A stretch of DNA of 38,371 bases, from the NCBI GenBank assembly GCA_040143965.1, contig JASJQH010000047.1:1-38371 (forward strand). Direction: 5' to 3'. The position numbers and the translations under genes are program-made. The notes under the pieces are model-generated. The model saw only the letters and a list, made by a program, of their open reading frames with translations. It made no database searches and was not told the origin of the DNA. Shown here in pieces: positions 11,440 to 33,182 of the stretch. This DNA is from Basidiobolus ranarum. Taxonomy: Eukaryota. Numbering within the stretch: the first letter of the stretch is position 1; each line of letters starts with the position of its first letter.

Positions 11440-14400
11440 ATGAGTAACAATATTAAAGTAGTAGTTCGTTGTCGTCCTCTCAATGCAAGAGGTAAAGCTA
11501 TCAAAAGCAAGAGAACATCATTTTTAAGGTCATCTGTTAATATAATTACGTAACCATAGAGAAGGCAAGAGGTGCACAATGTCTCATCCGAATGGAAGGG
11601 AATCAGACTTTCATCACCAAGCCAGATGATAATTCGGTGAAAGCCTTTGCTTTTGATCGCTCGTATTGGTCGTTTGATAAAAACGATCCTACTTACGCTA
11701 CTCAGCAAACCCTATACAACGACCTAGGTGAAGAGTTATTAGACCACGCTTTTGGTGGTTATAATACTTGTATTTTTGCTTGTACGTAAGAATGATACTT
11801 CTTGAAAGGGTCTTGAAATGTATATACTTATTTATTTTTCACTATTATAACAGATGGTCAGACAGGTTCTGGAAAATCCTATTCTATGGTAAGTGGAGTA
11901 TTCTTCTCTGATTCCTCATCCAAATTCAAGTTACTTATTTCATTGGGTTTTCTTTTTATCAAAAGATGGGTTATGGTGAAGATAAGGGTATTATCCCTTT
12001 GACATGTTGTGAGTTATTTCATCGGATGGACTCCAACTATGATCCAAATGTGAAGTACAATGTACAAGTATCATACATGGAAATTTATTGCGAAAGGGTT
12101 AGGGATCTTTTGAATCCTAAGGCTAAGGGAAACATGAAAGTTCGTGAACATCCAAGTATGGGTCCTTATGTTGAAGATCTTTCAAAGCTGATGGTTACGT
12201 CGTTTGCTGATATTGAGGCACTTATGGATGCCGGTAATAAGGTAAAACCAGCAACTGTGCATGCGCATGTCTGTTTACTTTATGATATATCAAATTACAG
12301 AGCCTTACGATGTTGCTTTATAAAACGATAGTCTAGAACCGTTGCTGCGACGAATATGAATGAAACGTCCAGTCGTTCCCATGCTGTCTTTACACTTATA
12401 TTGACGCAGATCCGATTTGATCCGGAAACAAAAATGTCTTCTGAAAAAGTGTCGAAAATTAGGTGAAGATTCGTTCATTTATATACTTCTCTAAACCCTT
12501 ACTGCAATACATATTTAACTGTGTGTTTCCTCGGTTCAGTCTGGTCGATCTTGCAGGTAGTGAACGTGCCGATTCTACAGGGGCTACCGGAACTAGATTG
12601 AAAGAAGGAGCAAACATTAACAAATCTTTAACAACTCTTGGTAAAGTTATTTCCGCTTTAGCTGAAGCCTCTTCAAAGAAGAAAAAGAAAGATGAATTTG
12701 TGCCATATAGAGATTCGGTATGGATTCATTAACTTTATATTTCTTTCAATTGTAAACATGTAACTTATTTCTATTCTTTTAGATCCTTACTTGGCTTCTT
12801 AAAGATTCCCTTGGTGGAAATTCAAAAACTGCTATGATAGCAGCCATTTCTGCTGCTGATTATGATGAAACCCTCAGTACCCTTCGTTATGCTGATCGTG
12901 CTAAGCAGATTCAAAACAAGGCTGTGGTTAACGAAGATCCAAATGCCAGATTGATCCGTGAATTGAAAGAAGAACTACAGATGTTACGCACCAAGTTGGT
13001 CGCCTACGATCCAGCCGAGGCTGAAGCATTGGCAGCAGGTGGTGGAAGCTACTCTGTATCTAGCCCTGGTCTTTCCTCTGGCCCAGCAGGGAAAATCAGG
13101 GATCAGCTCCAAGCTTCAGAGAAGCTCATGGCTGAACTGAATGAATCTTGGGAAGATAAACTGAAAAAAACCCAGGATATTCAAACGGAACGGGAAAAGG
13201 TTCTAGAGGAATTGGGTATCTCCATTGAAAAGAATCAAGTTGGTGTTTACTCTCCCAAACGAGTACCCCATTTAGTCAACTTAAATGAAGATCCATTAAT
13301 GTCCGAATGTCTCGTTTACAATCTTAAATTTGGAAATACTAAAGTTGGAAGAATGGATTCTGAAGTAACCGCGGATATTCGATTAAGTGGCTCTAATATT
13401 CTCGAGGAACATTGCTACTTCGAAAATAACAATGGTATTGTTACACTATACCCTGGAGAAAATAGTATGACCATGGTAAATGGACGGCGTACCAACGATC
13501 CTAAAAGACTCAGATCTGGCTTTCGTGTCATCCTCGGAGATAATCATGTTTTCCGGTTCAATAATCCCGAAGAAGTCAGACGTGAACGTGATATGCAAAA
13601 GAGTGCGCTAAGTAACTCGGTATTTCCAGAAGCTTCGTCGCCAACTCCAGACGAGCATGATAGACCCGAATCTCCCACTTCTACAATCTCTTTGGCCTCC
13701 GAAGTTGTGGATTGGAATTTTGCATGGAAAGAAGTTGCCAATACTATGTACAATGCCGATGGTACTCCATTTCCTTTGAGTATCAAAGATGGCGAGGGTG
13801 AAGACTCTTTCATGTTAACAAGCCCTGACCCAGCTCGTCTAGAATTTGAAGTAAAACTTCATCTAGCTCGTAATGAAATGCAACAACAGCTAGAGGTTCA
13901 AAAGCAAGGGTACGAAGAAAAGCTTAAAAAACTCGAAACTGGAAGTAAATCACCTGAACAGACAATCGAAAGAGAAACTTTGGAAGAAAAGCTTAAAGAA
14001 ACACAAGTTAAAATGGAAAAAATGCTCGTACGGCAAAGGGATGAGTACGAAAAGAAGATCAGACGCATTTCCACCTTGCCTCCTGGAACTTTCTATCAAG
14101 AACCAATTGTTTACACTGAGAGAGAAAAGGAATTGATAAATTGGACTCTTGGCCGCATGCGGGCCCGTCGTACCGTTAACATGGCTGAAACAGTTCTAGC
14201 TAACGCGGTTGTTTTAAAAGAAGCCAACGTTATTAGCAAGGAACTGGGAAAACAGGTCACTTACCAATTCACCATTGTGGAAGATTATCCATTTATCCAG
14301 CCTGTATCTTTCTGGGAATGCATGTCGGCTTTGAATCAGTTTGATAACCAAGAAGACTCGGATTTGTTCCAATGTCCAAAGCCATGCATTGGAGTCAAAG

Positions 14401-16689
14401 TAATTGACATGAAGAATGAAGTGATTTATACATGGTCTATCGACAAACTCAAATCTCGACTGAGACGCATGCGCCAATTGTATAATTATATTGATCAACC
14501 CACTTATCGAAAGCATTTCAACTTTGAGGAGCCATTTTATGAAGATCCACCTACATCGTTCACTCTTATCGGAGGTGCTTCCGTATATCTCAAAAATCTT
14601 TTGTTCAGGTTTGCCCAAGAACACAGTGTCCCGGTCCTTTGTAGGTACACTGGTAAGATTAAGGGGTATTGCCGTGTCGCCCTTACCCCTGTCATCGATA
14701 AGGAAAATAACGGACTAGCTTCACCTCTCATCTCCCCCAGAACGAGTGGAGATGAGAGTGAGGCTGAAGGTCTTGTTGATACATCGCAATCACTTGGGGT
14801 GGGAGATCAGATCAAGTTCAAAGTTAGTATCATTGAATTATCCGGATTCTCTGAGGATGACTACACTCAAGTTCACTGTCAATTCCGTTTGGCTGGCTTT
14901 GGTAGCGTCAAACCTCTGTCTGAAAATGACAAGATATTCGCGACAGACCCTGTCACTGATTTTGAGAATTTGCCTATTTATTTTGGATATCATCAGGTGA
15001 TATCCATGACTTTAACTGAGGAAAGCTTAAACCATCTCCGTTCTAATCACCTCATCTTCGAGGTATACGGTCGTGCGAGACCAAAAGTTCTATTTGAAAT
15101 AGAACAGTGGGATTCTCAGCAAGAAGGTGGTGATGTCGTACCAGCATCTGATACCATGAGTATAGCCTCTGATAGATCAAAGCCTGTCGAGAGAAGATCC
15201 GATGAAGAGTTGGTAGCTGAGGAGCATCACGATGTGTTAGCTTGGGCACAGATATGTGAGTTGGGCCCCACAGGTGAATATGTTGCTGTGCCTGTTCAAA
15301 CAACCAACGCAATGGACTCAGGCGCTTTTATGCTTCGTCAAGGTCTACAACGTAGAATCGTTTTAACCTTATCACATAGTAGTGGACATCAGTTTGAGTG
15401 GACTAAAGTTACAAAAATGAAAGTCAGTCGTATTCGTTTACTCGAAAATAGAGCTCGTATAGTAGAGTCTAAGCCTCGTAAAGACCTCGAACTAAACATA
15501 GTTCCATCACAATCAGTAATATATCGCCCAGATGGGACCAGCTGTCTAATAGCTCAGGCTTCATGGGATAGTTCACTTCATGATTCTGTCTTCTTGAACA
15601 GGGCCACTGCTTCTAATCATCGTGTTATGATGACATTAAACTGGGAGCTCGAAGCGGATCGTGTCTGCGAGCCAATATGCTTTAGTATGGATATCGCCGT
15701 TCAAGTTCAAGGACGTGAAGCTCGCACTCTTACGAAAGGATTAATGAAGTTCTTAGGGGGATCTAGCAAACAACTTTATAAAATGAGCACTGTTTTCCAA
15801 GTAACCCTAAAGCCACCCATTACTCGTAAATTAACTGAGCTATGGCGAATGAATACGGCGTCAACATATATTCGTGGTGAAGAATTCCTTGGAGGATGGA
15901 AACCTCGTGGAGTTTCGTTAGTAAAAGAGTATCGCCTCATTCATGAGCGTATTCGCGTTGTTGAAGAAGTCGAAAGCACTAGACAACTATTAAAAATGAG
16001 AGAGATTCTAGGCATTCAAACATCAAGTTCCACTAACATTCCTCCTGAGGAGCTTTGCCAAAAAATCATCGCATTGTGGCAGCGCCCACAAAGAACTATT
16101 GATGATGACATTGTTATTGATCCTAATCCTCCACTTCCTGAAGAGATGACAACACTAGAGCAAGAACCTTCTTTTGAAGATAGCGCCCTCGGTGCGTCCG
16201 CTACACCTTCTATTTCGGAAACGTCCTCAAAGCATCTTGCGCAATCCATTGGATCCATCAAAGATCAAGTAAAACTTACAGCTCAAGTCAAAGTAATCAA
16301 CAAATCCGATACAATAGCCAAGAGAGGGTATTTGTATTATCCTGAGGATCCGCAAGATATCTTTAACTGGTCGAAGAAGTGGTTTGTCATTCGTCGACCC
16401 TATCTGTATATCTATGCCAACAATTCCGAGTCAGACGAACAAGCTGTAATTAACTTGACAGCTGTAAGAGTCGACTATCAGCAAGACCTTGAAAACATGT
16501 TGCAGGTATGGCATTTATAAATTCTTGTATATTGAAATTTCTCTTCTAACCTTTGAAATATTACAACAGAGAAAGCATGTTTTTGCTATCTACACTAGCC
16601 ATAATTCCTATTTACTACAAGCACCCTCTCAAGCGGAAATGGATGATTGGATTGGTCAAATTGATCAATGGTATCATGCACTTTCTTAA
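11440..16689 (+). CDS. unc-104: Kinesin-3 family motor (Unc104/KIF1-type; ~1578 aa, 8 exons)
   Basis: Exons 11440-11491, 11560-11781, 11854-11888, 11966-12241, 12332-12462, 12540-12717, 12783-16505, 16570-16689. Motifs: [11 protein letters not shown]-loop GQTGSGKS, switch I SSRSH, switch II DLAGSER, K-loop KKKKK, FHA region ([18 protein letters not shown]...HVFRFNNP) and a C-terminal PH domain. Confidence 0.95.
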
Positions 16690-18173: not shown

Positions 18174-21100
18174 ATGCGAAACCCTGGCTCGAATAAGCAA
18201 GAAACCTCTACTGCTGCTGACACTCATACAAAAAACTCACTTTATCATCACGACTGTGTCTCTCTTGACCGACTAAAAGCAGAGCCAACAATTTCCCACT
18301 ACCCTATTGACAAAACTGGTGTACCAAACATCAATATCTATCCTTCTCCTTCCCCTTCATATCAAGAAAACTTTCAGAAGGAGCCTATCTTTATTTCTGA
18401 AGACGCGGAATCGACTCTAACTAAACCTAGAAGTAATTCAGGATTGCAATTATCCTTTTCTCACCAGAAACGCTCTTCTTCACCTGATTTTACTCCAAAA
18501 AGTCCATTTCATCCGAATTCGCTTACTCCAACTCGAGAATTACGTAAGTCTTCATCATCAAGTCATTTGGCGCTTAACCACACTCCAAGTAGAACATCTT
18601 CGATGACTTTGGATTCAACAAGGGAGAACAAGGATAATGGCCACATATCTATGATTTCCAATTTCGAAAGTTCCGGGAGTTCTAACAGCAACACTTACCA
18701 ATCCCAATCTGGTGTTTGGAAGTCCTTCAAAAATAAGTTAGGCAAATTCAAAAGTAAAGACAGAGTTGGAAGTACAGAAGGTAACTGGTAAAGCTTAAGT
18801 TAAGATATATACGACTTTCATCTAACCTTTGTTTAGTGGATAATAATAGGAAAGGATCTCACTCTTCTGATAAAAGTTTGATAAGCGACGAGTCTTCTTC
18901 ATATTTGCCGAAACGTCGTGGGAGTGATGGTTCATGGTCTAGACATCGTAAAAGAAGCGAGGAGGAGTTACAGCCGGTAGCAATTTAACATTACTCTTCT
19001 GTTATATTTGTAAACTAACCTTAAGTTGTATTCATCTGTTAGATTCGTGGAATTAATGGATTTGATTGTATGTATTTCAGTTAAAATTTGGTTCAGAGTT
19101 AGAACAAGTTACTCACGATAAATGAATCTAGTGGAAATGGATGGGATTGTAAACCCTGAAGCGATAGCTAGAGCTAATAACCGCTTACATACAGCGTCAT
19201 TCATCGAAGGTGGAGATAATGCTATTAACCTTGAGGAGTGGAACAACACCTTGCATAGAAAAGAGTCAGCAGAAGCCTGGATTCCACCTGAGTCCTGGGC
19301 AGTTGTGCTACCATCTTCAAGTCAACAAATTACTGACGACGAAGAAGAAGATTATCAAGAAGTGCAACAAATTGAAAATGAGAAATCACTTGCTAGTAAC
19401 GAACCGGTAAATATTAATACCTTAAGTGAGTTTCTTCACTTCAAGACATTTTCTGACAAATTGATAGTATTGTATCCGTATTTTTCGAGAGGACTCTACT
19501 TTTGGTACAGTAACTGTTCCCATCCACATCGTAGCTGCAGATCTATGCGAGATTTTAGGACGTAAATTCTTTCTTACTGAGCCCTCAAAATACAATCTCT
19601 ACGTGCAGCGACATGGCCTTGGTAATATTTCTAGAGATTTCTCTTGACAGTTTCACTCTTATTTACGTTTCTTCAGTAAGGATATTTGCAGCCCAAGAAC
19701 GACCAATTCAATATCTTAAGCGAATGTTGGAGCAAATGGGGTATACCAGTAAAGATAAACTGAGAGACCAGTGCAGAGAAGACAACACCTATTTATGCCG
19801 GTTCACATTTAGTCTAACCAGTCTCCAAGCAACTAACGTGGTGAGTGGTCTCTTAACTGAGCATTTTGCAATGGTCTTGGTATATTAAATATTGTTGTAG
19901 GAATCTTGGCCAGCTAGCTTTCATGAGGTTGATCTTCCCTCACGAAACTTACAAACAGTTCCGATTTTATTGTTCAAACATGCATCTATCATAGTTACTC
20001 TGAATTTATCAAAGAATTTGATGTTGGACATTCCGTCAGATTTCATTCAAGTCTGTACAAGCTTGATGGATTTGAAGCTACGAAACAATGAATACAAGCA
20101 TATTCCTAATAGTATTCGTTATGCTAGCAAATTGGAGTGCTTGGACCTGTCGCATAATAGATTAAAAGAGGTAGAATCTGGCCAATTGCACTCTATACCA
20201 AATCTCAAGAAGCTCTTCCTTTTCAACAATCGGATCAACATACTCCCACCAGAGTTCATTGAGCTCAAGTCTCTGACGGTTCTTGATATATCCAACAATA
20301 AGTTCACTGAGTTTCCTAACTCTGTGTGCGAGCTCATCAATCTCAAGGAACTGTATGTGTCATATAACCGACTCCATCTGCTTCCCGAAACCATTGGAAA
20401 GCTAGTCAACTTAGAGGTGTTGCATCTATCCTGCAATCAGATATCTGGGTCTCTGCCTAAAGGGTTCCAAAATCTTCGTCAACTAATTGAACTCGACATT
20501 CACCAAAACAAGATTCACGATTTGGATGTTTTAGCCTCTTTACCTCAGTTGGAGAGATTATTCAGCGATCACAACTCAGTATCCAATCTCACAGCCCAGT
20601 TTCAGCTACTCAAGCATCTGACCCTGTCAAAAAACCATCTGACACAGTTCAACCTTTCTTGTGTGTCGAACACTTTGACAGACTTGAATCTCTCTTCAAG
20701 CAAACTTTCCACACTACCGGACGATGTGTTTGAACATTTGGGAGGATTACAAAGATTAAAATTAGATAATAATCATCTTGGAACTCTTCCGAACTGTATT
20801 GGCGCTTTGAAAAACCTGCAGGTCTTAAGTTGCACCAACAACTTGTTGGGTTCTTTACCAACTGAGATTGCTGGCTTGTTGGACTTGAGGGTGTTGGATG
20901 TACACAATAACAATCTGAAGACCTTGCCCGAAGAATTCTGGTGGTGTCCTAGGTTGACCGTGTTAAATGCCAGTTCTAACTTGCTGGAAACTTTTCCAGC
21001 TCCCAGTGCCTCACCACCTACCTTTTCCTCTGAATCACCTACATCGCCAATTGCTTCAGTAAAGGAAACCCCGTTATCTCGCACTGCACCTCCTCCTTTA

Positions 21101-23998
21101 ACCCTCTGCATACAAAAGCTCTTCCTAGGTGATAACCGGTTGACTGATGATGTATTTCCTTTGATCGGCTTATTGACGGAGCTCAGGGTTTTGAACGTCT
21201 CTTTCAATGCAATTTACGAAATTCCACCCAACACCTTGTTTGGCTTGGTAAACCTGGTGGAATTATATCTATCTGGGAATCAGATCAGTTCGTTACCCAC
21301 CGATGAGATTGAACGTCTTCGTAGTTTACGTATACTACATGTTAATGCCAACAAATTGCACACACTTCCGGCAGAACTAGGAAAGATTGGAAAGTTGGAG
21401 GTATTGGATGTAGGCAGCAACAATTTGAAGTACAACATTTCTAACTGGCCCTATGATTGGAACTGGAATTGGAATCGTGAGCTTCGTTATTTAAATCTGT
21501 CTGGCAATAAGCGACTACAGATTAAGAACAATCATACTGATCTTAATCCGAATAGAGAGAGGAATCTGGCGGATTTTAGCTCTTTACAGGTTCTTAGTGT
21601 CCTCGGCTTAATGGATGTCACTCTAATGGTAGGTGTGCCTGAAGAAACCGAGAATCGTAGAATTCGTACTTCTACTTCAGAAGTGAACCACATGAGCTAT
21701 GGCATGGCCGATTACCTTGGTCCATCTGGTGTCTTGTGTTCTTGGGATTTAGCAGTCCCCAGATTCCGAAGCTCTGAAAGTGAATGTCTATTCGCATTGT
21801 TCGACTCGCTAAATGTGAAACGTGGGGGATCAGCATTTTCAAAATACTTGAATGATTGGTTTACATATCAGTTTACTTCAGAGTTGAAAAAACTACGCGA
21901 ACCTTCCGAAACTGCTGAAGACGCTTTACGTCGTACATTCTTAGGTATTGAAAAGGAATTGGGGACCCAATTTATTGAAAAGGGTAGAAATGCCGGCGCC
22001 TCCGCCTTGGTGACTTACATTTGCGATAAAACCCTTTACGTAGCCAACGTTGGCGATGCCTTGGCAGTAATTTCTCGAGGAAGTAGTGCACAATTGATAT
22101 CCACCCCACACTCACCGTGTAGCCAAAAGGAAATCAATCGAATTAGAGATTCCGCTGGCTGGATCTCCTCTAATGGCTTTGTTGGTGGTCAAGTTGGTGT
22201 CTCGCGATGCTTTGGGCAATTCAATCTATTGCCTGCAGTCAATGCGAATCCAGCAATCCAGGTAGTCGAACTCTGCGAGCAAGACGAGTTTGTAATCATG
22301 GCTAGCAAAGGCCTATGGGACCATGTGTCCTATCAAACAGCCGTGGATATTGCGTGTACATCGAGATTCGATTTGATGTTAGCTACGCAGAAACTACGCG
22401 ATTTTGCTATCACCTACGGTGCTAGTGAGAGCATTGTGGTGATGATCATTGGAGTCGGGGATTTGTTCAATAAACGTCCCAGACAAGGCCTGAACGGTGG
22501 TCATCAACCGTCACAACCTGGAAAGGGAATGTTTGGTTTTGCTGAAGGGTACGATGAAGCCAACCTATACCGTAAAAATAGACGCGGGAAGGATGAGCTT
22601 CCTGGAGACTCCACTTTAGCTAGATTGGATCGTGAAGTGCAACCCCCCAAAGGCACCGTAGCTATGGTATTCACAGATATCAAGAATTCCACCTTTTTAT
22701 GGGAGACACTCCCAAATGCAATGAACTCTGCGATCAAAATTCACAACAAAATTCTGCGTCGTTTACTACGCGCCATCGGTGGTTATGAGGTTAAAACTGA
22801 AGGAGATGCTTTTATGGTATCTTTCCCAACTGTCGCAGCAGCTCTGCGGTGGTGTTTGACTGTACAGCTTCAGTTGTTGCAGGCGGACTGGCCTCAAGAA
22901 ATTCTAAATTCTGAGGATGGCCAAGAAATATTTGGTCCTGGCCTTACGAACGAACTTTTGTACCGTGGATTGTCGGTCAGAATGGGACTTCATTATGGCA
23001 AACCAGTGTGTGAGAACGATCCCATCACAAATCGTATGGACTATTTTGGCCCCATGGTAAATAGATCCGCACGTATTTGTAGTGTTGCTGATGGAGGGCA
23101 AATTTGCGTCAGCTCAGATGTCATCAATGAGATCAACAACCTAGAAGGAATATTTGATGAGTCTTCAGAGTCGGAAGTTCCAGAAGACTTGCCTACTAAT
23201 GAACTTGGAAGAGATGAGTTAGCGTTGAAACAGCTTCGAATAGAAATAGTCAAACTTGGCGAACGAAAGCTGAAAGGACTTGAAAACCCTGAAGAATTAT
23301 CCTTGATTTACCCTAGATCTCTGTTAGCTCGGTGGGTACGTTGGCAACAAGCACAAACCAAAGAAGAACCGGTGGCCATCTATGAGAGGGCATTTATGCA
23401 GACAATTGATCCTGCTTTAGTACGTTCATTGGGTTATATCTGTATACGTCTTGAGCGAGTAGCATCAGGCAATACTAGCCTGATGAATCGTCGTGCTTCA
23501 AGAACGGATTATTTAAGCGGACTGCTTACTTTCCACGTTAAAGATAATGCGGAAGATCATGAATTAATAAGAATTCTAGAGGGGCTGGTTACCCGAATCG
23601 AAAATGCATACTCTACCATCTACCTGCGAAAATACGAGTCCATCGCGGCTACAGTTGCTGAAGTATTTGGGGAAGAATTCAACTTGAGTAATATCGACTT
23701 GGATGATTTCCGCAAGGCTTTAGGACAGCTCCGTGATATGTTAACTGCAGATAACAAAAACTCAAGACCGCAAATCTCTGATGATTCCCCAATACCACCC
23801 ACAAATTGCATATCTGCTATCAGCGTAGAGGATACGGTTGCTGAGGATCCACATCCATCCACACCTCCAGCGCGTAACTCTGTGAACTCGGCCTATCAAT
23901 CAAAAATCCGACCTTTAGGGATGGTAGTCACAAAAGAAATGTCGGATCCTTTCTTGCAAGAGCTTGCTTCACCTAAAACTGAAGAGAACCATGCCTAA
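18174..23998 (+). CDS. CYR1: Fungal adenylate cyclase (RA domain, LRRs, PP2C-like domain, class III cyclase; ~1820 aa, 7 exons)
   Basis: Exons 18174-18780, 18837-18976, 19043-19067, 19132-19406, 19468-19621, 19677-19840, 19901-23998 (5463 nt). N-terminal FDLEMDGIV and WIPPESWAV motifs, RA domain YCIRIFREDSTF, long LRR array, NWPYDWNWNWN, PP2C-like LYVANVGD, and catalytic VFTDIKNST, EVKTEGDAFM and DYFGPMVNRSAR. Confidence 0.96.
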
Positions 23999-27157: not shown

Positions 27158-27688
27158 AAATCACTTTAATTTTCTTCGTCCGTTTCGAGTAAATATTTTC
27201 CTCTTTTATTCTTTCATAGATACTATCACTAGTCTCCACACCCTTCAAGTTTACACCCTTCTATTTAGTTTCTTCTACCATCATCGCTTATTTACTTCTA
27301 TAAACATCATGCATCCTTTAATCTAAGCCATTATTTAATAAAAGTAACTCATGGCCTGCGGCCACTTTATTGATATGATAAGATATGTATTTAGTACATA
27401 GTTTAGTACCTACACTCTCACTTGACACCGCACCATTTAATCGTAGGTTAGGGTTAAAGTTAAGCTTATCTTCTATTTGCAGAGAGTTTCCATATCTATC
27501 ACTCGTTGAATTTGAGGGTTAGGTGAAGTATTTTCTTGAGAAATACTCGACTGCATGAAACAACATTATTGTGACGTTTTAAATAGATTCCATCTCACTA
27601 TAATTGCGTAAAAAAATTACTGGTATTGATTTTGAGATAAATCAAATATTAGATTCTTAGCAAGTTAGTATTATGAATATAGTACAGC

Positions 27689-28744
27689 ATGTTTAGGAAA
27701 GGTCATCGAATCGGAAGGATACTTCTACATAGAGAACTTGCGTCATGTATACCCAAGCGCTCGCTGTCTACTACGACCACGGTAATAAGTATCGCGCTTG
27801 GCATTCCTTTAGGAATGTACACTTACAAATCGGTAATGATGGTCTTATTTCAAAATAAAATCATATATATGCCATATCTACCTCCAGGTGCCAGACATGA
27901 GACTGAGATACCTAAAGCTAGCACGAACTACTATTTTAGAAAAGAAAAACTCCAGACTATTGATAATTGTACACTTGAAGGGATCAGCATTGCGAATAAA
28001 GAGGAAGAAGAGAGAAAACCCAACCAGGTTCTTGTTTATTTCCATGGGTATGAAATATTCTACCAGAAATAGAAATATTCCATCTATTCTATAATAACCT
28101 CACGTTTGTTCTACAGAAACGCTGGTAATGTTAGTCATCGTTTTCCTGTATTCAATACAATTCTTCGAGCTTTACCCGATACAACTATTGTGTCTTTTAA
28201 TTATCGAGGGTATGGCGGTTCAACTGGTTCACCTAGTGAACAAGGACTTCAACAAGATAGCGTTTGCATTCTGTCCTATGTTCAAAAAAAATTCCCCAAT
28301 TCTCGAGTAATTCTCTATGGGCATAGTTTAGGTGGTGCAGTAGCAGCGTACTTAACACATCAAGTTGAAACCAACCCCACTGAAGTCAATCATGTTGTTG
28401 GTTTGATACTAGAAAATACATTTACTTCCATCACTGGGATGGTATATCATCTTTACCCAGCATGGCTTCCATACCGTTACCTCACGAAATGGTTTCTTTG
28501 GAATCGATGGGACACTGATACCTTGATGAAGCAGATACATCGTACACCAGTATTAATTCTGACTTCAGAACGAGATGCGATAGTTCCCACTGAAATGATG
28601 AACACTCTATGGGAATCCTTGGAACCAAATGAATCATTCAACCGTTCCAAGATAGTGAAGTTCCCTTACGGTACTCACGAGGATACCTTTAAACAGCCAG
28701 GATTCAAAAAGGAGATCCGCGATTTTGTCAACTCTATAAGATAG
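27689..28744 (+). CDS. Bem46/ABHD13-like alpha/beta hydrolase (~328 aa, 2 exons)
   Basis: Removing intron 28048-28116 gives FHGNAGN. Also NYRGYGGSTGSPSEQGL, nucleophile GHSLGG, ILENTFTS, acid DAIVP, His in GTHED, and an N-terminal TM followed by FQNKIIYMP. Confidence 0.9.
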
Positions 28745-28922: not shown

Positions 28923-31900
28923 TTATAACTTCAGTGCTAGTCTGTCTTGTGGATATTTCCGTTTCGCATACTCACGAACAGGCCCGAGAACGACCACGAC
29001 TTGCCAGAAGATACCAACTGCCATATTGGCTATGCTGAGACCCCACAGCTTCCATCTGAAGTCAGTAGGATATACATTGTGTCCCTGTGGCAGACTGTAT
29101 GGCTCGATGTACCAGCTGGGACGGCCATATCCAATCTCTTCAAGCACTTCCGGAGTACCGCAATTCAGGCGCAATAAACAGCCAAGTCTGTTAGGATCTG
29201 CCAATTGAGAGTACATTACGATAATCAAGAATCCAACCCAAAGGATCAAGAGTTTCCAGTTTCTCCACCAGGCTGCACGATATTTATGTCCAAAATTGAA
29301 CACCATAGCTACGTTAACGAATTGATATAAGGAAACAAATGAAGCAGTTTGAGATTCGTAGTTATCTCCTAAAAGCCACCATTTGGAATAGTCAACAATA
29401 CTCGAATCGAATTCGTTACAACGATACCAACTTTGTTGTCGAAGGAACACAAATGCACCAATAAAGAACAGATGATTGATAACAATTTGCCCAAGTACTG
29501 AGGCTAAGGTCTCAGGACCAAGAATACGAGCAGTAGGCCGAGTATGGGCTAGTCTAGTGGCTGCATGTGATTGGGTAACAGCCCAGGCGAGTCCAACGGT
29601 TACAAAGGCATCGACCATGATCCACACATTTTGAGATGGCTGCATGGAGTAGTAGAAACTGAAGATCTTTACCCAAGCCATTGTTTGTCCGTACATAATA
29701 AGATACTTGTAAGCAGCGAAAGAGGTAGCTAGAGCAGCCCGTCCTTGTTTCAAGAGTTCTACGCAGGATACAATTGAGCGTGTGCTACTGCTAAATGGAG
29801 AGACAATAGAGGCCTCAGCTTCGCTTAAAGCAAGTCCAACATGAGAGGCACGAAGGGCACCACAGTCATTACCACCATCACCGCACATAGCCGTGACACC
29901 ACGTTCCATATGTAATTGTACGCATTCAACTTTGTCATTTGGCTTCATTCTAGCGTAAACACGGATATCCAAGAGATATTTACGAATAGAATCGTCTTCC
30001 ACCATGTAATTAAAGGCTTTGTTGGTAACTGCTAGTTCAACTGGAACATTGAACTTGTCTTTTACAGCTGTCTCCATATCTGCAACCTCACCGGTATCAG
30101 CATCAGTCCAAATAAGACTATCTCTTGATAGATCTCCGAGAAGCACACGATTATTAGGCGGAATCATACCACATTGACGAGCAATGTAAATACCAGTCAA
30201 AGCAGTATCGCCTGTGATCATGACTGTACGAGTACCACCCTCCTTAAGTTGTGTGATGGAATCAGTAGTGTCATCCTTAAGCATGTTCTTGAAAAGAACA
30301 AGTCCCATCAATCTAACTTGGCTCTCCATTTCTTCACGAGACCATTCAAGTATAGAGTTTGGATCGATTTTACCCAAATCACGATGGGCCATAGCAAGAA
30401 CATAACACCCTTCCATTGCTAGCTTATTACACATAGTATCATAATCTTCAGGAATAGAGCTAGGATCACATAATTCTTTCACTTTCTCAAACGATCCTTT
30501 GACATATACGTGTACATGCCCAGTTGTGGGATCAAGAATGGCTACGGACATAGCGGCACGGGCGTGAACAAATTCGTATCTTTTGACCACTTGAATTGGT
30601 ACTGCGTTAGGTTCTTCGGTTGGAGTCAAAGTATCCAAATAGTTTCCCTCTGCCTGTGGAGCGAGTTCCCATTTGGTAGAACGGAACATTTCAATATCAA
30701 CCGGGTTACCAATTAATTGATCATTAACCTTAGTTACGGTATGACAAGTGGCAACACCAAGACGAATAATACGAGCGATATCTACGAATTTGCCATTTCT
30801 TTCCAGGAACTTGGGAGTGGAATGTTTATCAGCAAGATCAGTATGATCATCACCATAAGAGTTAATAGGTTGAACTCCATAAAACTCTAGACCTTCCTTA
30901 GTTAAGGTACCGGTTTTGTCGAAACAGAAGATGCGGACCTTACCGGCGATGATGATTCTTGGAAGATCAACGCAAAAGATTTTCAACTTACGTAGACGAC
31001 TGGCTGCAACACTTTGGCCAACAACTAAAGCTGCTGGAAGTAAGGGAGTGATAATCTGAGAAATAGTAAACATGCCGTAGAACCAAGCAGCAATATCACC
31101 TCTGCCTCCTAACCAAAGAGCAACTCCAAAGCAAATCAGACCGTAAACAAGAAGTACAGCCATCACAATGCGTAATTGCTCATCAAAGATGAATAATATA
31201 GGATTGGGGAAAAGAATTTTACGCACAAGCTTTCCTTTATCAGTGGAGGTGTTGGTGCGTAGTACTAGAGCGGTAACCTTTTGTTGGTTCCCTTGACCAA
31301 TAGGGGTTGCTTGAGAAATGGTAGTACCAGCGTATAAAGTATTGTTCTTGCCGGATCCAGATGGGTCATATTCCGTGTTGTCATCTTTTAAAGGGAACTT
31401 ACGAATTGGTAAAGGCTCTCCAGTAAGTGAACTCTCATCAGCAACAATATTACCACTGATCACAATACCATCGCAAGGTACAGCCATATCTTTGGTAACT
31501 TCGAAGACATCTCCGGGTACAAGTTCAGCTGTAGATAGCTCTTTCCATTGACCATCACGTAGCACCAAGCAATCACTACGATGTTCAGCCATTTTCTTAA
31601 CACGATGCTCTGAAGTAAGTCTCGTAACTACGCGGATCAAAGAGGAAATCAAAATTACTGCAGTATCAACAATACCGATGTAATAGTAATTGTAATAGTA
31701 GAACAACCAAAGAATCATAAATTGATACAGGTAGAAAAATGAGGTAAATTCTTGCAACAGTGCCACTGGAAAGGAGGGAACTTTCACACTGATGAAGTTA
31801 CTTCCCACAAGTTCTTTTCTACGAATAGCTTCCTCTTTTGTCAACCCGTTTACTTGTTGGAGTAGATCGTGATTGCTTGTGCCTACATCAATCTGGAATG

Positions 31901-33182
31901 GCTTATAGTCTTGAATCTCATCATCAAATACGAAGCGAGTACACTGAAATTCAAAGTAACGACGTCCAAGGGTAGTGGCCTGTACAGCACAGGTAGTAAC
32001 ATGATAATCCCAACCAAAGAAATGTTTGAGTTTAGCCTCCACGTTGCGAACAGCAATTAAAAGGCGACTGTGATCGTCCAGAAGAATATTGGTTTTCAAT
32101 TCACGCTCGAATTGAATATAGTTAGATTGATTAGGATGACTTTGAATGCGGAAGTAGTTGCGAATGCGTGCACGAAGAATGTTGACCCCAAGCAACCAAA
32201 AAGCGGAAAAGTACCACACAGAGACGAATACATTAGAAGAGAGAGTTCCATCCAGTTTGGTAAGGCCAAATGGTGCTCCAGTGATAGTACCGTAGTAATC
32301 ACCTGTAAGAACGCCCATCCAGACAAACCAGCCAAGTACCATGAACACGATCGACCAGAAACCAATAGTTCCGTAAAAGTTGTTATTATATCCTTTGATG
32401 AGGAAATCACTGTTGTCTTGATCTTCATCAATCTCAACCTGATCCTTCTTTGATTTTTCATTGCGTTGGTCTTTTTCGGTCATTTGTTGCTCACTTTCCT
32501 TACGGCGGGCCAAATCTTCTTTGCGGATACCTCTCTCGGCGAAAGTTTTGTAAAGGTGCCAGGTAACCAAAAGGAAAACTTCGATACCCAAAATAGTCCA
32601 AATTCCAATCCACATTGGTTCAGTATACGAGAACTGTTGAACATGAGTTGACTTAGGACAGGTAAGCCATATCTGGTTACCAGTAACGCCTGCAGAAACT
32701 TGAGGGATATTACTAATCCCCATTTTGGATGCACATACTTCGGCGGTTTGAGAATCGACTTTCTTGGGATCAAATTGGGGAATGTCCACCCATTCACTTT
32801 CTTTGCAAGGGAAGTACTGCTGACTTAATTCAATCCCTGGGCAAGCGCACTTACTGACGGATCCAGAACATGAACTTTTACACGAGCCATCAGGACAGTA
32901 ATTTTGTCCTTCAGGACAAGAGGGTCGAATCGACTCGGGGCATTGACTGATATCATTCACGCACATAATAGGGCACATGGCATGCTTCCTTGTACCCAAA
33001 GGACAGGTTTGACCACTAGCACTTTTCTCGTTAACTGGATTAAACAAAATTGATTAGATGAACGGTCACTTCTATGACAAAATATTCACATCTTATTTAC
33101 TTGGAATCAAAGGAACGGAGTTGACTTGTAAAGCCAAGACCATCATGGCTATAAGCCAAGTTACATATGTGGACGCTATCAT
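28923..33182 (-). CDS. Atypical P5-type ATPase with signal peptide and Cys-rich N-terminal domain (~1397 aa, 2 exons)
   Basis: Exons 33182-33101 (GCTGCC ATG context) and 33034-28923, total 4194 nt. P-type motifs: DESSLTGE, DKTGTLT (30900-30920), YVKGSFE, MITGD, VYARMKPNDK, MCGDGGNDCGAL, ASIVSPFSS. The C-terminal TM region (NYESQT...GHKYR) is P5-like. Confidence 0.92.

Follow-up and report, generated by a model that had tools for sequence, protein, structure and literature searches.

A third-branch P5 ATPase of Basidiobolus ranarum with a predicted signal peptide and a predicted luminal 13-cysteine domain

To our knowledge, P-type ATPases are textbook N-in proteins and their extracytoplasmic partners, β and CDC50, are separate subunits. 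The β subunit of the Na,K- and H,K-ATPases and the CDC50 protein of the P4 flippases have a disulfide-bonded extracytoplasmic domain with their own TM helix, and rest on the pump's luminal loops. In the polytopic transporter NPC1, a signal peptide leads into a Cys-rich N-terminal domain in the lumen, which captures a lipophilic ligand for hand-off.

The P5 pumps include the P5A (Spf1, ATP13A1) and P5B (ATP13A2-5, Ypk9) groups. A P5C clade was named in 2025 with one studied member, TgFLP12 (TGGT1_289070), and the available text of PMC12217143 places it in fungi other than yeasts, oomycetes and alveolates, and reports it absent from animals and flowering plants. The term 'P5C-ATPase' came up in our literature search only in that paper, and the SPLLP motif searched with ATPase gave nothing relevant. 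For the Plasmodium ATPase3 (PF3D7_0504000), the accessible part of Wiser 2025 (PMC12655044) states that AlphaFold puts two TM helices and one extra membrane-crossing helix at the N-terminus, and dismisses them as wrong.

The locus and its P5 core

The window analyzed here is the whole 38,371-nt stretch of B. ranarum contig JASJQH010000047.1. It holds a two-exon gene on the minus strand, 33182-28923, for a P5 ATPase with a spliced CDS of 4194 nt, or 1397 aa plus stop (Table 1).

Table 1. Positions in the window of the gene parts and of the observed or predicted protein features.
Feature	Coordinates	Strand	Basis or remark
Coding exon 1, 82 nt	33101..33182	-	27 codons and first base of codon 28
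Predicted cleavable signal peptide, residues 1-22	33117..33182	-	-3/-1 rule; equivalent leaders in homologues
Phase-1 intron, 66 nt, GT..AG	33035..33100	-	in-frame stops; CTAAT branch-like site
Coding exon 2, ~4.1 kb, including stop codon (28923-25)	28923..33034	-	colinear with full-length homologues
Predicted luminal 13-Cys domain, residues ~23-167 (~140 aa); exon-2 part	32616..33034	-	13 Cys, family conservation, AF2
Predicted extra helix TM0, residues 168-186, lumen to cytosol	32559..32615	-	hydrophobicity; model helix 137-192
Predicted charged cytosolic linker, residues 187-250	32367..32558	-	low model confidence, probably disordered
N-terminal TM hairpin, Ma (251-269) and Mb (296-314)	32175..32366	-	luminal GDYYG loop between helices
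P5 core: NTD, A, P, N domains, M1-M10	28926..32174	-	Pfam and PDB matches
M4 motif TPLLPAA	31029..31049	-	replaces PPALPA (P5B) / PPELPME (P5A)
Phosphorylation motif DKTGT within CFDKTGTLT	30906..30920	-	sequence
Luminal loop L7-8, clade-specific C1233 and conserved EFD..WW..DNYE	29349..29441	-	alignment
Luminal loop L9-10, clade-specific C1313 and C1319 (C-x5-C)	29043..29195	-	alignment

The core is that of a P5 pump. It matches the Pfam families E1-E2_ATPase (4e-26), Hydrolase and Cation_ATPase_N, and its phmmer matches in the PDB are ATP13A2 at 1.4e-116, Spf1-type pumps at 7.5e-75 and the best non-P5 pump at 5.5e-25. Against four outgroup pumps, the protein groups with the P5 rows with a support of 100.

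P5B pumps are thus its best match of solved structure and share the core domains and the 10 core TM helices. However, the P5B reference rows have VPPALPA in M4, and PF12409, listed for P0300-P0309, is not found in our protein at E<=1. P5B pumps have a membrane-embedded loop where this protein has two full N-terminal TM helices and TM0, and their N-terminus is cytosolic whereas it is predicted to be luminal here.

P5A pumps share the two N-terminal TM helices before the NTD and match in the core, but our protein has neither the PP(D/E)LPxE motif nor PF23143. It adds the predicted signal peptide, luminal domain and TM0, and falls in a separate clade. The M4 consensus of its relatives, (S/T/N)P(L/I)LPA, is consistent across them. 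The sequence-only reading of this DNA had claimed that characterised P5A and P5B pumps lack such an N-terminal domain. This holds in 7 P5A and 10 P5B reference rows, and the PDB alignments to ATP13A2 and Spf1 begin only at residue 357 of the exon-2 protein.

The 13-Cys domain and the clade-specific luminal loops

The Cys-rich segment picked out earlier does have 13 Cys, at residues 38-153. These stand in a 140-aa predicted luminal segment, versus 19 Cys in the remaining 1230 residues. Exactly 13 are kept in 129 of the 130 complete domains among relatives. At least one N-glycosylation sequon is found in 123 of these 130 domains, a count that chance expectation is not far below, and the window's domain has none.

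No known fold was matched by the domain. AF2 models it alone with confidence (pLDDT 89.3, pTM 0.74). Foldseek with this model gave a best E of 2.2 and nothing significant, and the VIA fold comparison with 48161 PDB chains gave a best Z of 2.2, with Z>=2 in 7 chains. Pfam has no family on the domain and no consistent match across 40 members, and the ESM Atlas gave no usable match.

Among known Cys-rich extracellular modules such as EGF, furin-like and LDLR-A, none gave a consistent Pfam match (40 members) or a significant one in Foldseek or VIA. The EGFR Cys-rich region and LDLR-A appeared in weak Foldseek rows that are not significant. The whole N-terminal 320 aa, modelled from an 8-sequence alignment, reached a mean pLDDT of 67. 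This model gave nothing in Foldseek at E<=1e-3, and its VIA matches (Z ~8) are generic helix bundles confined to the helical part, 127-306.

Whether the domain is always fused to P5 ATPases had been asked earlier. Among the short profile matches inspected, no clear case of a free-standing copy was seen. Such matches have the look of gene models that are split or incomplete. One of them, P0416 (DSO57_1008303), has a locus tag adjoining that of P0032 (DSO57_1008304), which is an ATPase core.

Two luminal loops of the core are particular to the clade. L7-8 is extended, and L9-10 has an insert of ~29 aa that is absent from P5A and P5B. Their Cys recur in the 38 clade rows, C1233 in 34, C1313 in 35 and C1319 in 34. 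None of the three occurs in the 7 P5A or the 10 P5B reference rows, save one Cys in one P5B row in the 1233 column.

The motifs WYRCNEF and GCLLRLNCG, named earlier as possible partners of the odd domain Cys, indeed lie in loops that are luminal by P-type topology. A bond of the odd Cys to a loop would be numerically attractive, because 13 and 3 make 16 luminal Cys, all clade-specific. A complex prediction of residues 1-160 (exon-2 protein) with M5-M10 (1092-1369) scored 0.00; run with alignments unused, no controls and an uncertain partner fold, it speaks neither for nor against the contact.

The domain might instead be mainly a sorting or quality-control handle for ER exit or post-Golgi targeting, with no role in transport. 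The pump core does not depend on this exact fold, as the oomycete-type members have a different luminal domain with 7 Cys and the luminal stretch of another subgroup contains no Cys. However, the main-group domain co-occurs with the conserved clade-specific luminal loops and loop Cys, which argues for its physical coupling to the membrane domain. We regard a mere handle as unlikely.

Leader, topology and gene model

The leader consists of an n-region MIAST, an h-region YVTWLIAMMVLAL and a c-region QVNS, with V at -3 and S at -1. Signal cleavage would probably occur after VNS. In homologues, equivalent leaders end in small residues that directly precede a conserved (I/L/V)P(V/L/A)(F/W/I) motif. 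Among the relatives whose match begins at profile position <=6 (n=142), 116 have a hydrophobic leader of 12-60 aa with a median of 27 aa.

The other 26 fail this leader criterion. About half of them, with leaders of <=9 residues, resemble truncated gene models, and the rest are borderline or long. The criterion alone is unspecific, as it is passed within the first 35 residues also by 2 of 12 P5B-type and 2 of 7 P5A-type rows. The composition of the leader and its recurrence in relatives are nonetheless consistent with the signal-peptide exon that had been proposed from the letters of the DNA.

An uncleaved signal anchor would turn the leader into a 14th TM helix, with only a very short stretch of N-terminus in the cytosol, and would still leave the Cys domain luminal. 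The hydrophobic KD window spans residues 2-28 and the n-region is uncharged, with no basic residue, as such an anchor would allow. But the h-region is only ~13 residues long and is followed by the polar QVNS with small or neutral -3 and -1 residues. Homologues have A, S or G at -1 just before the conserved motif, and the median leader length is typical of cleaved signals. The anchor is therefore quite improbable and the cleaved signal peptide is preferred.

Beyond the leader, hydrophobic segments at residues 168-186, 251-269 and 296-314 precede the core helices. This and the model agree with the order given by the sequence-only reading, namely a TM helix, a charged linker and two more helices, and with its total of ~13 TM helices. 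TM0 is followed by a juxtamembrane W-x3-K-x3-E, in which W158, K162 and E166 are invariant or nearly so. The linker has 64 residues with 13 K+R, 15 D+E and no Cys, and its richness in K and R after TM0 agrees with the proposed topology. The GDYYG loop between Ma and Mb is conserved, with invariant D245, Y246 and Y247.

Since three membrane helices lie between them, the Cys domain should be on the membrane side opposite to the cytosolic A domain. This weighs against a P1B-like reading, in which the Cys-rich segment would be a regulatory domain that binds metal in the cytosol and the leader would be no targeting signal. CP and CxC spacings do occur in this Cys-rich segment, and P1B pumps have Cys-rich N-terminal metal sensors, according to the available text of PMC10654040. 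However, hydrophobic leaders lie upstream in most of the relatives, the Cys count and spacing are fixed at 13 and partner Cys stand in the luminal loops. Moreover, His-rich motifs and CxxC ferredoxin-like motifs are missing, and Pfam gave no HMA match. We give a cytosolic metal domain hardly any credence, and keep the luminal one.

The start ATG is at 33182-33180 and exon 1 translates to MIASTYVTWLIAMMVLALQVNSVPLIP. The intron runs GTAAAT...CCAG with the branch-like CTAAT 18 nt upstream of AG, and exon 2 begins in phase at 33034. Exon 2 is colinear with full-length homologues, with 85-89% identity to P0004 and P0003 (~1380 columns), so no further intron is needed. Its stop-to-stop frame does not open until 33053, and the first Met comes at residue 47. 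As this Met falls inside the conserved domain, an upstream exon is needed.

The annotated paralogue P0004 of Basidiobolus meristosporus reads SVPLIPINEK across the same junction point, and the spliced product matches it there. The predicted junction is canonical and in frame and has comparative support from P0004, which bears out the hidden exon and in-frame splice first noticed from the letters of the DNA. P0003, the closest of the public models, has no leader at its start; the window's intron, read through at its 3′ end, lines up with the first 7 residues of P0003, so that this model most likely missed the exon.

That exon 1 is a chance ORF with the true 5′ end elsewhere and the signal peptide a gene-model artefact, as the start of P0003 might suggest, is scarcely believable against the position of the first exon-2 Met, the canonical in-frame splice with its P0004-like product, the read-through in P0003 and the leaders across distant taxa. 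The window has two further long ORFs on the plus strand, 12783-16520 and 19901-23998, which are unrelated to the ATPase.

A third P5 branch and the proposed cap

A profile of the N-terminal 320 aa matches 262 proteins at E<=1e-3. The leader, the 13-Cys domain and TM0, as predicted along these sequences, are a family-wide trait. The tree has a 38-row clade with the window's protein at an SH-aLRT of 98, apart from P5A (100) and from the PPALP-type P5B rows; being from a quick search with several long branches, it leaves the order of the three groups unresolved. By alignment and tree, the protein belongs to a third P5 branch apart from P5A and P5B, hardly described so far. The sequence-only reading took the architecture for a candidate uncharacterised system, yet it is no orphan and is the standard form of a large P5 clade.

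The named members are from the early-diverging fungal groups Mucoromycota, Zoopagomycota and Blastocladiomycota, from Ichthyosporea (Amoebidium, Creolimax), the oomycete Globisporangium and the apicomplexans Rhytidocystis and Cardiosporidium. Among the named rows there is no animal or Dikarya member, and among the rows carrying names no moss or diatom member. No Toxoplasma or Plasmodium sequence is among the matches to the Rhytidocystis member.

The branch is most likely P5C, as judged by its taxon range, its apicomplexan members and the published descriptions, and not by the sequence of TgFLP12 or PfATPase3. It is likewise a third P5 group, into which Rhytidocystis and Cardiosporidium fall. 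The taxa of the named rows and the separation from P5A and P5B both agree with what the available text of PMC12217143 reports.

ATPase3 resembles our protein in having an N-terminal extension, and its AlphaFold helices, as given in the accessible part of PMC12655044, match the layout here. TgFLP12 is described in the available text of PMC12217143 as having 12 TM domains and lacking a targeting signal at the N-terminus, and so differs from this layout if its gene model is complete. In the portions available, PMC12217143 makes no mention of a signal peptide and PMC12655044 none of cysteine, and neither describes a Cys-rich luminal domain. The literature searched holds no description of an N-terminal luminal module of P5 ATPases, though the clade is named.

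Taken as a whole, the protein is probably a third-branch P5 pump with a luminal N-terminus, a signal peptide, a disulfide-rich luminal domain and a cap. The signal peptide of ~22 residues would target the nascent chain to the ER. The next ~145 residues would fold in the lumen into a compact disulfide-rich domain with the 13 conserved Cys, and TM0 would bring the chain back to the cytosol. The charged linker would then lead to a two-helix hairpin as in P5A and to a normal P5 core.

The luminal domain would most likely lie on the luminal face beside the Ma-Mb loop, L7-8 and L9-10 as a cap. Such a cap may be the built-in counterpart of the Na,K-ATPase β or CDC50, with likely roles in folding, in exit from the ER and in the shape of the substrate path's luminal mouth. 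The receptor-like pump with a built-in accessory subunit or ligand-capture domain, as suggested by the sequence-only reading, is compatible with these data and neither favored nor disfavored by them. The likeness to β and CDC50 is by function only, as here the module is fused to the pump N-terminus in type I orientation and has no sequence or fold similarity to them.

As to the cargo, the window's protein has other residues in place of the first P5B-conserved Asp in M6 and of the Asp that follows the M1-M2 LW motif. We take these two Asp to correspond to polyamine-site residues of ATP13A2. Polyamines are probably not carried, since M4 is more hydrophobic (SPLLP-type) and the P5B-conserved acidic positions in M2 and M6 are replaced. 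Our best guess, by analogy, is transport of a lipophilic cargo into the cytosol, out of the lumen or the luminal leaflet. The available text of PMC12217143 claims movement of a lipophilic cargo in that direction for TgFLP12.

A bolder version would extend the cleaved signal peptide and the TM0-held luminal domain to all third-branch pumps, including the ATPase3 and FLP12 types. It would link the odd Cys to C1233 of L7-8 in the main group, and let the cap, a new fold, capture a lipophilic cargo and feed it to the pump as NPC1 does. We consider this rather doubtful. The NPC1 N-terminal domain is an analogy only, as no PDB chain matched the fold of the window's domain in the VIA comparison.

Within the literature searched, the N-terminal module is not described and the clade is already named. 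For the superfamily, the combination of signal peptide, luminal disulfide-rich domain and extra TM helix would, if true, be a new architecture. If it holds for the whole branch, no other P-type ATPases would have an extracytoplasmic N-terminus together with 13 TM helices. The AlphaFold features that the accessible part of PMC12655044 calls hallucination would then be real. Gene models without the short signal-peptide exon, such as P0003, would be corrected. The module would also give a structural handle on the barely studied P5C pumps, including apicomplexan proteins discussed as drug targets.

Gene model and N-terminal topology

The ATPase frame lies on the minus strand (Table) and a short frame upstream of it contains an ATG at 33182. 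The first Met of exon 2 is residue 47, already within the conserved domain, so an upstream coding exon is required. The intron contains stops in frame and, 18 nt ahead of its AG, a CTAAT; a splice from 33101 to 33034 preserves the frame and gives a CDS of 4194 nt. On either side of the junction, the residues match those of P0004, an annotated Basidiobolus meristosporus paralogue with 85% identity. The hidden exon, the in-frame splice and the length of 1397 aa proposed by the sequence-only reading all hold.

Coordinates of the ATPase gene and other open frames in the window
Feature	Position	Strand	Description
Exon 1	33182-33101	-	82 nt, 27 codons and one base; encodes the hydrophobic leader
Intron	33100-33035	-	66 nt, GTAAAT at start, CCAG at end
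ATPase frame, stop to stop	33053-28923	-	1376 codons
Two adjacent open frames	27683-28744	+	alpha/beta-hydrolase-like, GHSLGG nucleophile elbow
Long open frame	12783-16520	+	1245 codons, no relation to the ATPase
Long open frame	19901-23998	+	1365 codons, no relation to the ATPase; leucine-rich-repeat-like

The closest public model, P0003 (B. meristosporus K493DRAFT_384971, 89% identical), has no signal peptide, and so the comparison suggests that it most likely missed the short first exon. Its first seven residues fall where translation of the window would run on through the 3' end of the intron (33035-33056). About a dozen other relatives' models have leaders of at most 9 residues and may have missed a first exon likewise. 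In the ORF translations, the hydrolase-like frames converge on the ATPase 3' end, with roughly 180 bp between them and the ATPase stop codon.

Kyte-Doolittle windows mark residues 2-28, 168-186 (the extra helix TM0), 251-269 and 296-314 (the Ma-Mb hairpin) as hydrophobic, ahead of the core helices. Residues 28-167 hold 13 Cys versus 19 in the other 1230, and the 64-residue linker after TM0 has 13 K+R, 15 D+E and no Cys. Three membrane passes separate the Cys domain from the cytosolic NTD/A domain and thus place it in the lumen, as had been proposed. The WYRCNEF (L7-8) and GCLLRLNCG (L9-10) loops, also proposed to be luminal, are so under the standard P-type topology. By the -3/-1 rule, cleavage is predicted after VNS at residue 22, and in relatives the last leader residue is A, S or G, directly followed by a conserved (I/L/V)P(V/L/A)(F/W/I) motif. 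We hold the gene model and the luminal placement with high confidence, and the signal peptide is quite probably cleaved.

At the other end, the C-terminus (28926-28940) reads ...LALKL, and most relatives end in K-L, K-x-K-L or K-K. This conserved cytosolic tail might be a candidate sorting signal with a spacing that departs from the textbook KKXX.

A third branch of P5 pumps

Pfam matches the protein to E1-E2_ATPase, the HAD hydrolase fold and Cation_ATPase_N, with no match in the first 380 residues. Against solved structures, human ATP13A2 of P5B is the best match (E 1.4e-116), followed by a fungal P5B (1.2e-103), P5A Spf1/ATP13A1 (about 1e-74) and non-P5 pumps (from 5.5e-25). The P5 structure alignments begin no earlier than residue 357 of the exon-2 protein.

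The M4 motif is (S/N/T)P(L/I)LPA across the whole family, and neither PPALP nor PPELP occurs in any collected member. The reference rows read VPPALPA(A/T) with PF12409 listed, or VPPELPME with PF23143 listed. In a maximum-likelihood tree of 59 rows and 1103 columns (LG+C20 PMSF, quick search), the window protein falls in a 38-row clade (SH-aLRT 98) that includes ichthyosporean, oomycete and apicomplexan sequences. P5A (support 100) and the PPALP rows fall outside this clade. The tree contains a number of long branches, and no branching order among the three groups is drawn from it. Specific to the clade are an extended L7-8, an insert of ~29 aa in L9-10, Gln for the first P5B-conserved Asp of M6 and loss of the Asp following the LW motif in the M1-M2 turn. 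We take these two Asp to correspond to polyamine-site residues of ATP13A2.

A 2023 review divides P5 pumps into P5A with PP(D/E)LPxE and P5B with PPALP (PMC10654040). In 2025, a third clade P5C was defined around Toxoplasma TgFLP12, with proposed fatty-acid export, and PF3D7_0504000 (PMC12217143). Judged by taxon range, apicomplexan members and the published descriptions, the window's clade is probably P5C. TgFLP12 is described there with 12 TM domains and without an N-terminal targeting sequence (PMC12217143), a different layout from that of the window pump if its gene model is complete. Rather than an orphan system, the pump is an ordinary member of a large and hardly studied P5 branch, probably the one recently named P5C.

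Conservation, fold and cysteines of the N-terminal module

With the N-terminal 330 residues as query, seven proteins were found (Basidiobolus, Calcarisporiella, Sporodiniella and a JGI record), and all 13 Cys align in 6/6 of those that span the domain. The core as query gave 2678 hits, of which the best 120 share 51% identity or more and are for the most part around 1400 aa long; the organism-named rows among these 120 are all Mucoromycota or Zoopagomycota. Among 1.84 billion cluster representatives, a profile built from the N-terminal 320 residues detects 262 proteins at E<=1e-3, of which 154 reach <=1e-10 and 64 reach <=1e-30. Ten distant representatives include, as named taxa, Kickxellomycotina (Mycoemilia, Spiromyces), Coelomomyces (Blastocladiomycota), the ichthyosporean Amoebidium, the oomycete Globisporangium and the apicomplexan Rhytidocystis. 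A further homologue search added Cardiosporidium (Apicomplexa) and Creolimax. The short profile hits look like pieces of split or incomplete gene models, not like independent proteins; the locus tag of one, P0416, adjoins that of an ATPase core.

A domain-only HMM matches 202 of the 283 collected sequences, and 129/130 complete domains have exactly 13 Cys. Among the 142 matches with a Met start and a profile position <=6, 116 have a leader of 12-60 aa with an 8-residue hydropathy >=2.0 (median leader 27 aa). The other 26 mostly have leaders of at most 9 residues or borderline hydropathy of 1.7-1.9. Since 2/12 P5B-type and 2/7 P5A-type control rows also satisfy the hydropathy test by itself, the weight is on the leader's fixed position immediately before the domain.

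Oomycete-type members (P0246, P0278-P0280, P0294, P0225) have a signal-like leader and then a different luminal domain of ~180 aa with 7 Cys and an ACPIN..CCD start, and the luminal stretch in P0296, P0297 and P0299 is about 80 aa long and free of Cys. With such segments in the clade, the N-out layout seems, from these sequences, older than any single luminal domain.

Modelled alone from an alignment of 40 diverse sequences, the 13-Cys domain has a mean pLDDT of 89.3 and a pTM of 0.74, with a few short strands and a single 16-residue helix. The best Foldseek match in the PDB had E = 2.2, and VIA-align, run exhaustively over 48161 chains, reached Z 2.2 at best and gave Z>=2 for just 7 of them. 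Pfam gave no consistent hit among the 40 members and ESM Atlas no usable match. As none of these methods finds a match, the modelled domain looks like a fold without a solved relative, although a missing match is no proof of a new fold.

The loop Cys are common in the 38 clade rows (C1233 34/38, C1313 35/38, C1319 34/38) and absent in 7/7 P5A and 10 P5B rows, except for a single P5B row with a Cys in the 1233 column. None of the three occurs in the oomycete-type members with the 7-Cys domain, and in the subgroup with the Cys-free stretch C1313 and C1319 are retained and C1233 is missing. This co-occurrence, in a few lineages, fits a local C1313-C1319 bridge and a C1233 tied to the canonical domain as 13 + 1 paired Cys. 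In apicomplexan P0271, P0287, P0288 and P0237, the Cys at column 52 is missing along with that at column 74, and in most of them so is the one at column 90. In this uncertainly aligned part, the joint absence hints at C52-C74 being one disulfide.

A possible luminal cap and its meaning

The pump would be targeted to the ER through the cleaved signal, and its domain would fold oxidatively in the lumen and be anchored by TM0. The domain, the Ma-Mb loop (with a conserved GDYYG) and the enlarged L7-8 and L9-10 could then assemble as a luminal cap that may shape or gate luminal entry. Its role would resemble that of the separate beta or CDC50 subunits of P2C and P4 pumps. We give such a cap about an even chance. 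The hydrophobic M4 motif and the lost P5B acidic positions argue against polyamines as cargo; our best, tentative guess is a lipophilic cargo like the one put forward for TgFLP12. The observation of the sequence-only reading is confirmed, and its interpretation is supported in part.

In Wiser 2025, ATPase3 has an N-terminal extension and AlphaFold gives the Plasmodium protein two N-terminal TM helices and another membrane-crossing helix (PMC12655044). There, these helices are called 'obviously wrong', and P-type ATPases are said to offer no precedent for an extracytoplasmic segment (PMC12655044). The layout is the same as that of the window pump. The literature searched, in the parts available, describes neither a signal peptide nor a Cys-rich luminal domain for these pumps, and the module of signal peptide, Cys domain of apparently new fold and extra TM helix appears undescribed there. 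By sequence comparison, the module is conserved across eukaryotic supergroups. Its conservation from fungi to apicomplexans suggests that the ATPase3 helices dismissed by Wiser (PMC12655044) are real.
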